Position numbers and translations under genes: made by a program | Source: a virus | Lineage: Duplodnaviria; Heunggongvirae; Uroviricota; Caudoviricetes | DNA length: 37,725 bases | Virus record (IMG/VR): IMGVR_UViG_2721755725_000007 | Direction: 5' to 3' (one strand) | In this document: positions 3,681 through 6,263 of the stretch, one piece after another | Layout of the letters: every line of letters begins with the position of its first letter | Numbering within the stretch: position 1 is the first letter of the stretch | Notes under the pieces: model-generated | What the model was told of the DNA's origin: nothing | Seen by the model: the letters and a program-made list of their open reading frames with translations, nothing else | Database searches by the model: none

Positions 3681-4030
3681 TTAATCGTATCAAGCTGGAG
3701 CACATCCTCGAATATGCCAGGCAGCAGAGGCATATTGGTCAGCATTGTAAAATTCCACCAGGAGATATGGTTGAAATCATGGAGATTGCCATGCGCAAGG
3801 CTGGCAATTCTCCGGTAACTCCGGATGGTTGGATAAGCTGTAGTGAGCGAATGCCGCCAGTTGGTGTTGATGTACAACTGTTTGTGTCCAGCACGGGTGA
3901 ACAGTTTACAGGTTTTAACCTGGATAATACGGGTGACTTCCAGTATGCGCAGTGTTTCGGTGCGCCCATCGTGTGTGAAGCCACACACTGGATGCCGCTA
4001 CCAGAACCGCCGAAGGAGGTGCGCCAATGA
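3677..4030 (+). CDS. DUF551-domain phage protein
   Basis: Product has WISCSERMPP ... THWMPLPEPP, the signature I associate with DUF551 proteins of enterobacterial prophages. Confidence 0.7.
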   Translation: MINRIKLEHILEYARQQRHIGQHCKIPPGDMVEIMEIAMRKAGNSPVTPDGWISCSERMPPVGVDVQLFVSSTGEQFTGFNLDNTGDFQYAQCFGAPIVCEATHWMPLPEPPKEVRQ

Positions 4031-4110
4031 GCTGGCCTGAAGCCTTCTCAAATGTTGGTATTGCAATGGCGGTGGCGCTGGTTGTGTATTCGATTTGCCG
4101 CTGGGGATAA
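4027..4110 (+). CDS. candidate 27-aa hydrophobic peptide (MSWPEAFSNVGIAMAVALVVYSICRWG)
   Basis: ATG overlaps the DUF551 stop (ATGA); strong Shine-Dalgarno AAGGAGG at 4013-4019, 7 nt upstream; single predicted transmembrane helix; followed by a terminator hairpin. Confidence 0.35.
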   Translation: MSWPEAFSNVGIAMAVALVVYSICRWG

Positions 4111-4122
4111 TTTGCTGAAAAA

Positions 4123-4160
4123 AGATCCCGACACACACATGAGTCGGGGATCTTTGATTT
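4123..4160. terminator. bidirectional intrinsic terminator-like hairpin between convergent + strand operon and - strand toxin-antitoxin operon
   Basis: Inverted repeat AGATCCCGAC ... GTCGGGGATCT (one bulge) flanked by A-run upstream and TTTGATTT downstream. Confidence 0.45.
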
Positions 4161-4235
4161 ATATAGCCTACGAATCCGCCAGTAAGAGAGGGGGCGGACG
4201 GTTTATTCTAATACTGGAATTATGTGGGGAAAAGT

Positions 4236-4535
4236 TTATAAGAAATCGGTTTCATAACTTTGTCCGCCATGATAAATACCTGCGATAAAGACTTTATTGC
4301 CATCAACGGCAAAAGCAATAATCGTTCTGTGGCGGAAGTGAGTTACCCGCATTCCCTGTCGAATATCATCGCGTTTATTGCCCCGATGCGGGAATGTGGA
4401 AAACCCATCAAGATAATCAAGAAGTGCATTGGCATAATTGTCAGCAATGACGCTCCCTGCTTTCTCCGTTATATATCTGTGCAGGTTGATTATCTGCTGT
4501 TCGGCCTCAGGAGTAATGATGACTTCATATGTCAT
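4236..4535 (-). CDS. type II toxin, ParE/RelE superfamily
   Basis: 99-aa product MTYEVIITPEAEQQIINLHRYI...GMRVTHFRHRTIIAFAVDGNKVFIAGIYHGGQSYE; lies 5 nt downstream of the antitoxin gene on the - strand. Confidence 0.75.
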   Translation of the reverse strand: MTYEVIITPEAEQQIINLHRYITEKAGSVIADNYANALLDYLDGFSTFPHRGNKRDDIRQGMRVTHFRHRTIIAFAVDGNKVFIAGIYHGGQSYETDFL

Positions 4536-4540
4536 GCAGA

Positions 4541-4798
4541 TTACTTCCCGGCTCGAATCGCGGCGCGAACCTGTGAAATGGAGCGTCCGTTGTTTGGGTT
4601 TTCGCGGATAGAATCGAGAGATGGGGCGGCTGAATGCGTTAACCACGCTTCGATTGCTTTATCGCGCTCATTCAGTGCGCGAAGCCCTTCACGAATGACC
4701 TCACTTTCTGAAGCATAGGCACCGGAAGCCACACGGGCGCGCACCATGTCAGCCATCTCGTTAGTTAATGTAATGCTGAATTGTTGGGTTGTACGCAT
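4541..4798 (-). CDS. type II antitoxin, ribbon-helix-helix (ParD/CopG-like)
   Basis: 85-aa product MRTTQQFSITLTNEMADMVRARVASGAYASESEVIREGLRAL...; GGGAGG 7 nt upstream of the ATG on the - strand. Confidence 0.75.
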   Translation of the reverse strand: MRTTQQFSITLTNEMADMVRARVASGAYASESEVIREGLRALNERDKAIEAWLTHSAAPSLDSIRENPNNGRSISQVRAAIRAGK

Positions 4799-4851
4799 GG
4801 TAAACCTCCCGGAGTAGGATAGAACACTATTCGATGATAGCACACTGCCTG

Positions 4852-4878
4852 TTGACGACAACAGAAATCAGATACAAT
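4852..4878 (+). promoter_or_regulatory. candidate sigma70 promoter (TTGACG-N15-TACAAT) for the rightward DUF968/rusA/Q genes, divergent from the toxin-antitoxin promoter
   Basis: -35 TTGACG at 4852-4857, -10 TACAAT at 4873-4878; spacer is short (15 nt). On the opposite strand TTGTCG ... TATCAT could serve the antitoxin. Confidence 0.3.
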
Positions 4879-4933
4879 ATTGCCGCACGCCAGCCTGAAC
4901 AACTGGCACCTGCTGCGCCAGCAGAGACAACCG

Positions 4934-5212
4934 ATGGCGCACGATACCAGATTTTACAATTCGGATAACTCCGCCGCCCCTGCCAGCAGGCATGGGCGGC
5001 GTTCTCATGCATTCAAATCTGACTGGTTCCAGCATGACCCATGCACTGAAGAACAGGCCGAATGGCTGATCCAGTGCTACCGCAGACGTGGTTACGAGTT
5101 TCAGAAAGATCTCAGTTTCTATCGTCGTCACTGGATAATCTCTGTCAGGCTCCCTTATTCCGAATGCCCACCGCGTCCGTCCCGCACATTCCAGCAGCGC
5201 ATCTGGAGGTAA
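4934..5212 (+). CDS. hypothetical protein, translationally coupled to the DUF968 gene
   Basis: In-frame ATG 4934 of the ORF listed from 4880 (TTG); stop TAA 5210-5212 lies 1 nt before the DUF968 GTG, and the GGAGG serving DUF968 is inside its 3' end; weak own SD. Confidence 0.3.
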   Translation: MAHDTRFYNSDNSAAPASRHGRRSHAFKSDWFQHDPCTEEQAEWLIQCYRRRGYEFQKDLSFYRRHWIISVRLPYSECPPRPSRTFQQRIWR

Positions 5213-5213
5213 C

Positions 5214-6263
5214 GTGCGGGTATTACTTCGACCTGTTCTGGTGCCGGAACTCGGGATGGTGGTCCTTAAGCCGGGCCGTGAATCAATGTCAGCATTCCAT
5301 AACGGCAGAATATTGGTGGAGCCGGAACCGAAAAACATGCGCGGTCTGCCGTCCGGAGTCGTTCCCGCCGTTCGCCAGCCGCTGGCAGAGGATAAAACAT
5401 TACTGCCATTTTTCAGCGATGAGCGGGTTATTCGTGCTGCTGGTGGTGCTGGTGCACTGTCTGACTGGTTATTACGTCACGTGAAATCCTGCCAGTGGCC
5501 ACACGGCGATTATCATCACAGCGAAACGGTCATTCACCGTTACGGTACCGGCGCGATGGTGTTGTGCTGGCACTGCGACAACCAGCTGCGCGACCAGACA
5601 TCAGAATCACTCGATCAACTTGCTCAGCAGAATCTGGTTGCCTGGATGATTGATGTCATCCGTCACGCAATAAGCGGTACGCAGGAGAGGGAGTTATCGC
5701 TGGCCGAATTATCCTGGTGGGCGGCCTGCAATCAGGTGGTGGATGCACTACCTGAGGCAGTAGCGCGTCGTTCGCTGGGATTACCGGCGGAAAAAATCCG
5801 CTCCGTATACCGTGAGAGTGACATCGTACCGGGAGAACAGACAGCCATCAGCATACTGAAGCAGCGCACAAAAAATATTGCGCTGCCACTTCACGTCCAC
5901 CAGCAACAAAATCCACCACAGAAAAAAACGGTTGTCAGTATCGCCGTTGATCCGGAGTCTCCTGAATCGTTCATGAGGCGGCCTAAACGTCGCCGTTGGG
6001 TTAATGAGAAATACACGCGCTGGGTAAAGACACAGCCGTGTGCGTGTTGTGGTAAGCCAGCTGACGATCCGCATCACCTGATTGGTCATGGTCAGGGGGG
6101 AGTGGGAACAAAGGCCCACGATATTTTCACGCTACCGTTGTGCCGGGAGCACCACAACGAACTTCATGCAGACCCGCTGAAGTTTGAGAAAAAGTACGGC
6201 TCTCAGGTTGAGTTAATTTTTCGTTTTCTTGATCACGCCTTTGCGACTGGCGTGCTCGGGTAA
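5214..6263 (+). CDS. DUF968 phage protein (YdfU-like) with C-terminal HNH/zinc-finger-like motif
   Basis: 349-aa ORF, GTG start 5 nt after GGAGG; C-terminus PCACCGKPADDPHHLIGHGQGG...LCREHHNELHADP; same size and position (upstream of rusA/Q) as nin-region DUF968 proteins. Confidence 0.75.
   Translation: MRVLLRPVLVPELGMVVLKPGRESMSAFHNGRILVEPEPKNMRGLPSGVVPAVRQPLAEDKTLLPFFSDERVIRAAGGAGALSDWLLRHVKSCQWPHGDYHHSETVIHRYGTGAMVLCWHCDNQLRDQTSESLDQLAQQNLVAWMIDVIRHAISGTQERELSLAELSWWAACNQVVDALPEAVARRSLGLPAEKIRSVYRESDIVPGEQTAISILKQRTKNIALPLHVHQQQNPPQKKTVVSIAVDPESPESFMRRPKRRRWVNEKYTRWVKTQPCACCGKPADDPHHLIGHGQGGVGTKAHDIFTLPLCREHHNELHADPLKFEKKYGSQVELIFRFLDHAFATGVLG

Follow-up and report, generated by a model that had tools for sequence, protein, structure and literature searches.

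The parDE cassette and its regulatory elements

The 37,725-nucleotide (nt) DNA stretch IMGVR_UViG_2721755725_000007 (hereafter "the window", in whose positions all coordinates are given) is a defective lambdoid prophage of O111-type/enterohemorrhagic Escherichia coli (EHEC), located at the ompW locus, and it carries on its minus strand a two-gene toxin-antitoxin (TA) system of the ParD-ParE type. The two open reading frames (ORFs) are direct neighbors with the antitoxin first, parD being followed after a gap of 5 nt by parE, and they have the layout of a co-transcribed pair, with one promoter-like site upstream of parD and one terminator downstream of parE. Together with these elements, the genes make up a cassette (Table 1) whose left limit is the base after a conserved small ORF (smORF) and whose right limit is the base preceding 4889; there, at the junction GCCAGCCTGAACAACTGG, the window becomes homologous again to the O157:H7 prophage L003, which carries hokD. 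In the Shiga toxin 2a (Stx2a) phage ArgO145 (L002), homology to the window covers 4027-4869 at 93.7% and fades by ~4886.

Table 1. Features of the parDE locus and of other parts of the window; aa, amino acids; RHH, ribbon-helix-helix; sRNA, small RNA.
Feature	Position	Strand	Description
smORF	4027-4110	+	27 aa, hydrophobic, unannotated, MSWPEAFSNVGIAMAVALVVYSICRWG; ATG overlaps the DUF551 stop (ATGA)
Whole parDE cassette	4112-4888	-	777 bp, exchangeable; terminator, parE, parD, promoter/operator region
Hairpin terminator	4118-4155	both	arms 4118-4132 and 4143-4155; 12-13 bp stem with one bulge
parE	4236-4535	-	ParE-family toxin, 99 aa, MTYEVIITPEAEQQ...ETDFL
parD	4541-4798	-	RHH antitoxin, probable autorepressor, 85 aa, MRTTQQFSITL...IRAGK
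Shine-Dalgarno GGGAGG	4805-4810	-	6 nt ahead of the parD ATG; read from the sequence
Promoter-like site of the parDE operon	4834-4861	-	TTGTCG-16-TGcTATCAT, TG extended -10; consensus scan
Perfect palindrome	4849-4864		CTGTTG-ACGA-CAACAG (6+4+6); spans both -35 hexamers; candidate ParD operator
Outward promoter-like site	4852-4881	+	TTGACG-18-AATATT; weak consensus match; points at rem-like/DUF968/RusA/Q genes
tRNA	9148-9207	+	Rfam gathering-level match, downstream of DNA methyltransferase gene
STnc100 sRNA	9293-9485	+	Rfam gathering-level match, downstream of DNA methyltransferase gene
Pseudogene call	~9312-9455	-	PGAP, 144 bp; inside the plus-strand STnc100 match
AgvB (anti-GcvB) sRNA	9487-9548	-	Rfam gathering-level match, downstream of DNA methyltransferase gene
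OspG-family effector kinase gene	36587-37177	+	right prophage end, beside IS1 remnants; by correspondence with L005

The terminator is a hairpin that begins 80 nt beyond the parE stop codon, preceded by A6 and followed by a T-run in plus-strand reading. Its minus-strand form, a stem with U6 behind it, is canonical, and its plus-strand form (UUUGAUUU) is weaker, the folding energies being -16.4 kcal/mol (z = -2.2) for the minus strand and -17.4 kcal/mol (z = -1.9) for the plus strand; 7 to 8 of 200 shuffled sequences folded as well. The folding on both strands supports the bidirectional terminator that the original prediction, made from the sequence of the window, had placed at the left of the module. 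Its basal 10 bp are kept in ArgO145 and in a further diverged copy of the cassette, L004, and the hairpin is absent from the hokD-type slot of L003, which makes it part of the parDE cassette. A simple terminator scan missed the hairpin because its stem is bulged, returning only a weak candidate at 4067-4080 within the smORF.

At the opposite end, we aligned the regulatory regions of four diverged copies, namely those of the window, L004, ArgO145, and an Stx2a phage with an orphan ParD (L006). Both hexamers of the minus-strand promoter-like site were invariant while the spacer varied, and the core of the palindrome (TGTTGNNNNCAACA) was identical in all four. The outward site on the plus strand shares its palindromic -35 with the parDE promoter-like site and is likewise conserved in the four copies, reading TTGACG-18-TATATT in ArgO145 and in the orphan-ParD Stx2a phages; in the ArgO145 copy, it points at an antirepressor gene. 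The cassette hence seems to carry a divergent promoter pair, in keeping with the earlier proposal of a divergent promoter region on the right, here resolved into two overlapping consensus-level sites. At this same level of prediction, transcription would be resumed from the outward promoter, beyond the cassette terminator, into the downstream genes. An alternative reading of the outward site as TTGACG-15-TACAAT was rejected, because conservation extends to the (A/T)ATATT at a spacing of 18 nt but not to TACAAT, which reads GACAAT in L004. We also rejected a third component of the kind found in PaaR-PaaA-ParE systems, as the sole upstream minus-strand ORF (4868-5338) is unsupported and overlaps the conserved plus-strand rem-like gene. 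Finally, a search of 3900-5300 against Rfam at permissive thresholds gave no match, so that the cassette contains no sRNA or antisense RNA of a known kind.

Both genes belong to ParDE families and are under purifying selection

The antitoxin scored above the cutoffs of two curated families, with 32.1 bits against Pfam PF03693 (cutoff 21) and 54.1 bits against the equivalog-level NCBIfam model TIGR02606 (cutoff 46.2), and it fell into phrog_6494 ("antitoxin from a toxin-antitoxin system") with an E value of 1e-56. Its RHH domain (residues 6-51) matched the structures of the ParD antitoxins 3KXE_C, 7YCV, 7B22, 8C24_C, and 5CEG_A, bearing out its initial description as an RHH antitoxin, and in RefSeq the protein is WP_001260976.1, "ParD family antitoxin".

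The toxin matched Pfam PF05016 with 40 bits (cutoff 23) over residues 5-94 of its 99 and fell into phrog_5232 ("toxin") with an E value of 1e-42; RefSeq lists it as WP_000220602.1, "type II toxin-antitoxin system RelE/ParE family toxin". Both ORFs therefore lie above curated cutoffs of TA families, rather than in unrelated families outside these systems. No NCBIfam model matched the toxin, the antitoxin alone being matched there. Because PF05016 spans both RelE and ParE, the branch of the toxin was tested by a profile and a fold search. While a single-sequence phmmer search of the Protein Data Bank (PDB) gave one marginal match (E 0.02), a profile built from 17 homologs retrieved ParE chains exclusively (6X0A, 5CEG, 7YCS, and 8C24). 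An AlphaFold model computed from 24 sequences reached a pLDDT of 88.7 and a pTM of 0.79, and in a Foldseek search with this model, the best 22 matches were all of the ParE type at a TM score of ~0.8 (including 6X0A, 5CEG, 8C24, 3KXE, 7R5A, 6XRW, 5CW7, and PfiT 9W3A), with RelE, YoeB, HigB, and YafQ ranking lower at 0.4-0.66. Judged by the modeled fold and the profile search, the toxin is a member of the ParE branch and not of the RelE/YoeB/HigB branch, which agrees with the original prediction of a ParE-family toxin. Across 24 homologs from Escherichia, Salmonella, Yersinia, Enterobacter, and Erwinia, little or no variation occurs in the FPxRGNxRDD motif or at His89 and Gly91 near the C terminus, the family being characterized by an invariant FPxRGNxRDD...R.T core and a conserved C-terminal His-Gly-Gly.

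The pair is an ordinary member of the ParDE systems and already bears a matching label in RefSeq, PHROGs, and the record of the inducible Stx2a phage ArgO145, where the cassette is annotated as toxin and antitoxin. Over positions 4100-4950, the chromosomes of E. coli O111:H- 11128 and of many other O111 strains match the window with 100% identity. Across 5426 complete E. coli genomes, we found the coding cassette (at least 80% coverage) in 328, always on the chromosome and never on a plasmid; 53 of these copies showed at least 99% identity and 275 showed 95-99%, and all 36 of the full-length copies listed among these genomes were annotated as intact pairs. Comparison with copies of 94-95% identity yielded ratios of nonsynonymous to synonymous changes (pN/pS) of 0.11 for parE and 0.06 for parD, indicating that both genes are under purifying selection.

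The cassette occupies a slot with exchangeable cargo

The slot of the cassette is flanked by a DUF551 gene on one side and by the rem-like/DUF968/RusA/Q genes on the other, and what fills this slot differs between related prophages. In the O157:H7 prophage L003, DNA homology to the window extends to ~4046 and protein homology continues through the smORF ending at 4110, with homology resuming at 4889; between these points L003 has ~1 kb with hokD and small ORFs instead of the 777-bp parDE cassette. The slot of the K-12 prophage Qin holds relB-relE-hokD-rem, and that of strain MDP9-27 holds hokD together with a minus-strand PF06296 RelE-like toxin and its helix-turn-helix (HTH) antitoxin. Alternative cargo between the same junctions was found in L003, L007, L008, and L009 as well as in IMG/VR loci. 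(The HTH antitoxin of L009 was compared with the HigA-like orphan of L006, and the two are unrelated.) Conversely, in ArgO145, the block corresponding to 4027 to ~4886 lies in the early-left operon beside the antirepressor gene, again antisense to its neighbors. The synteny with related prophages that place other modules between the same junctions, together with the presence of the same cassette in the ArgO145 operon, upholds the initial view of the module as an insertion.

To survey the slot, we used the 80 IMG/VR contigs (L010-L089) closest to the DUF968 protein of the window, a biased and redundant sample in which 74 contigs had enough upstream sequence and reduced to 43 distinct arrangements. 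HokD alone was the default cargo (31 of the 43), followed by parDE (5), a Fic/Doc-family protein with a small upstream ORF (2), and other genes (2), while hokD plus parDE, hokD plus the PF06296 pair, and a C5-methylase with an NgoMIV-type restriction enzyme each occurred in one arrangement. In the single arrangement with both hokD and parDE, an IMG/VR prophage (L077, 3291-4630), the two stand together in the slot along with a 117-aa minus-strand lipoprotein-like ORF, so that the cassette can evidently either take the place of the hokD segment or be present in addition to this segment. Judging from these sequence comparisons, several addiction-type cargoes replace one another in the slot, the parDE cassette among them. 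It also has the features expected of a phage "moron", with a predicted promoter and terminator of its own and a presence that varies among syntenic phages.

The prophage itself is degraded. It has no int, xis, repressor, or replication genes, the whole left arm being missing, because the window starts inside a copy of the IS3-family insertion sequence (IS) IS1203 (1-1256) that truncates the DUF1627 gene. This IS1203 copy carries an ALIL frameshift pseudoknot (282-398); a further IS1203, located in the lysis region, is present in strain E2863 but not in the window. An intact O157:H7 relative, also at ompW, shows the order int, xis, exo, dicB, and repressor, then cro-like, ydaT, replication genes, and DUF1627, continuing rightward to DUF551, the slot, rem-like, DUF968, RusA, and Q. 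As this order places the slot between the replication genes and Q, the slot lies in the nin-equivalent part of the early-right operon, and the nin-like location first assigned to the module holds. In the PGAP annotation of the same prophage, all coding sequences are on the plus strand except parE, parD, and one pseudogene call, so that the earlier description of parDE as the sole minus-strand coding unit is essentially true, the exceptions being this call and the noncoding AgvB, which is a second minus-strand gene of the window. The OspG-family kinase at the right end is virulence cargo whose retention would gain from anything that stabilizes the prophage remnant.

A neighboring small ORF and an orphan ParD in Stx2a phages

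The smORF that adjoins the cassette differs by five synonymous and three conservative changes in ArgO145 and L004, its peptide is kept in L003 (MIWPEAFAITGVAIAIDFLVYVICRWG) despite diverged DNA, and a tblastn search found it in 88 phage records. It has no Pfam match and probably represents a real gene for a small membrane protein. We rejected it as a part of the cassette, since it is present, with diverged DNA, beside hokD-type cargo.

An orphan ParD occurs in the Stx2a phage L006 (LC727840.1, 1799-2850) and in 37 complete E. coli genomes. It is identical to the ParD of the window at 74 of 85 residues, with all 11 differences in residues 49-85; the N-terminal 48 codons show a pN of 0 versus a pS of 0.30, and the C terminus shows a pN/pS of 0.37. 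The clustering of the differences is an indirect hint that the C-terminal region may be engaged in binding and neutralizing ParE. At this locus, parE is cut to seven codons (MAYEVPH*) and replaced by a lipoprotein-like ORF, which is followed by an HTH (HigA-like) gene. The orphan ParD and HigA of Stx phages were reported earlier with no assigned function (PMC12502783). The orphan ParD of the Stx2a phages offers a testable case of a phage-borne classical antitoxin.

Discussion

We favor, with moderate confidence, the reading that the window carries an intact, self-contained type II ParD-ParE cassette, an exchangeable cargo of a defective prophage, that acts as a classical addiction module. By analogy with the family, the operon would be repressed by ParD dimers sitting on the palindrome at the -35, and the C-terminal part of ParD would wrap around ParE and neutralize it; ParD would be proteolytically labile, with a faster turnover than ParE. 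Upon loss of the cassette or arrest of its expression, free ParE would then poison an essential target, probably DNA gyrase, and poisoned gyrase would be expected to cause DNA breaks, an SOS response, and filamentous growth. Inhibition of gyrase by way of GyrA is the rule for most ParE toxins (PMC8706911), and parDE of plasmid RK2 kills plasmid-free segregants, with SOS induction and filamentation imaged after curing (PMC10899753). The net effect would be addiction, in that cells losing or deleting the cassette-bearing part of the prophage would be selected against. As the prophage can neither excise nor replicate autonomously, the selective effect would be resistance to deletion of this segment or plain selfish persistence. 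The prophage-stabilizing or abortive-infection role proposed from the first is a reasonable conjecture.

Several observations weigh against this reading. A consensus scan of the region as a whole found no excess of promoter-like sites over shuffled sequence, and the promoter and operator sites are consensus-level matches only. The identity of the toxin to any characterized ParE is just 13-24%, and ParE2 of E. coli O157 does not inhibit gyrase (PMC8706911). In a prophage that does not excise, a stabilizing benefit acts against deletions only and is hard to separate from selfish persistence. No functional study of this ParDE pair turned up in our literature searches.

The cassette could instead be mainly an anti-phage or inter-phage conflict module that is kept as lysogen protection rather than as a prophage stabilizer, which we regard as unlikely. 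Here, a competing phage, upon infection or induction, would stop transcription of the host or of the cassette, and as ParD decayed, ParE would be left to abort the infection. The slot does resemble a defense/addiction hot spot, with its hokD, parDE, PF06296 RelE-like pair, Fic/Doc, and NgoMIV-type restriction-modification cargo, and variable hot spots of P2/P4 elements encode defense systems (PMC9122126), but neither ParD nor ParE matched any of the 5027 models of PADLOC-DB v2 at E values up to 0.01, and our literature searches found no report of phage defense by ParDE. Timing speaks against such a role as well, since type II toxins, once activated, need ~1 hour or longer to act, which exceeds the duration of a lytic cycle, and another gyrase-poisoning TA system induced lambdoid phages instead of blocking them (PMC10899753). 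Stx2a phages retain the orphan ParD with an N terminus under strict purifying selection, and an anti-defense use of it has been speculated (PMC12502783); however, the listed genomes with an orphan ParD do not have a full cassette alongside. A broader scenario, which we consider doubtful, would have the slot as a lambdoid addiction/defense hot spot with parDE engaged in conflict among lambdoid phages that are co-resident or superinfecting, the orphan ParDs of Stx2a phages as anti-addiction or anti-defense antidotes to ParE, and ParD controlling the Q-facing promoter through the palindrome.

It is more improbable still that the toxin is a RelE-like ribosome-dependent mRNA endonuclease or hits a target other than gyrase: The names of PF05016 and of the RefSeq entry cover the entire RelE/ParE superfamily, mycobacterial RelE structures appear at Foldseek ranks 23-24, and some ParE homologs do not inhibit gyrase (PMC8706911), yet ParE-type structures fill all ranks above these and all four PDB profile matches, RelE, YoeB, HigB, and YafQ score clearly lower, and the partner is a ParD-type RHH antitoxin above an equivalog-level cutoff. 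Equally improbable is that the cassette is an inert hitchhiker in this defective prophage, silent or toxin-inactive and not yet decayed, as might be supposed from the loss of the whole left arm to IS1203, given that both ORFs are full length and identical in the 53 genomes with at least 99% identity, that they are kept as pairs across the 328 genomes at the low pN/pS found, that the promoter-like site, Shine-Dalgarno sequence, and terminator are intact and conserved, and that all family-conserved residues are present.

The cassette may help a decayed, effector-carrying prophage to persist. Should ParE poison gyrase, its release would induce the SOS response and could co-induce resident Stx prophages in EHEC; another gyrase-poisoning TA system has been shown to induce lambdoid phages (PMC10899753). 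The context is more useful than the module: The slot amounts to a natural experiment in cargo exchange among lambdoid prophages.

Comparison with known systems

The pair shares with ParD-ParE of RK2/RP4 and with chromosomal ParDE systems (Caulobacter ParD1-ParE1, 3KXE; Mesorhizobium ParDE3, 5CEG/6X0A; Vibrio cholerae ParD2-ParE2, 7R5A; Mycobacterium tuberculosis ParDE1, 8C24; Pseudomonas aeruginosa, 6XRW) an antitoxin-first two-gene operon, an RHH N terminus of ParD, the ParE fold (TM ~0.8), similar protein sizes, and a palindrome at the promoter. It differs from them in its low identity (13-24%) and in its location, being found in a slot of a lambdoid prophage and not on a plasmid or in the core chromosome.

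Among prophage-borne relatives, ParESO-CopASO of the Shewanella oneidensis prophage CP4So likewise includes a ParE-type toxin, and its autorepressing antitoxin binds inverted repeats and the system maintains CP4So after excision (PMC8706911). The structural match is weak, however (7ETR, Foldseek rank 48, TM 0.59), the antitoxin in CP4So is of the CopA type, and maintenance after excision of the CP4So kind cannot apply to the window because int and xis are missing from its prophage. The PaaR2-PaaA2-ParE2 system of E. coli O157:H7 prophages also places a ParE-fold toxin in an EHEC prophage (5CW7, TM ~0.8), but it has three components, with a small non-RHH antitoxin and a separate regulator, whereas the parDE cassette has two, its antitoxin being an RHH ParD, and lacks a third ORF. 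In the filamentous Pseudomonas prophage Pf4, PfiT-PfiA, which modulates phage production (PMC7264888), is again a prophage-encoded system with a ParE/RelE-superfamily toxin, and PfiT is among the top structural matches (9W3A, TM 0.8); it differs in its identity of 16%, in the extra C-terminal extension of PfiT, and in the type of phage.

The relB-relE-hokD genes of K-12 Qin and hokD of O157:H7 share the slot itself with the parDE cassette, directly upstream of the rem-like/DUF968 (ydfU)/Q genes. RelBE, an mRNA interferase system, and Hok, a type I membrane toxin, belong to TA families unrelated to ParDE, and while relBE-hokD and hokD are co-oriented with the flanking operon, parDE lies antisense to it.

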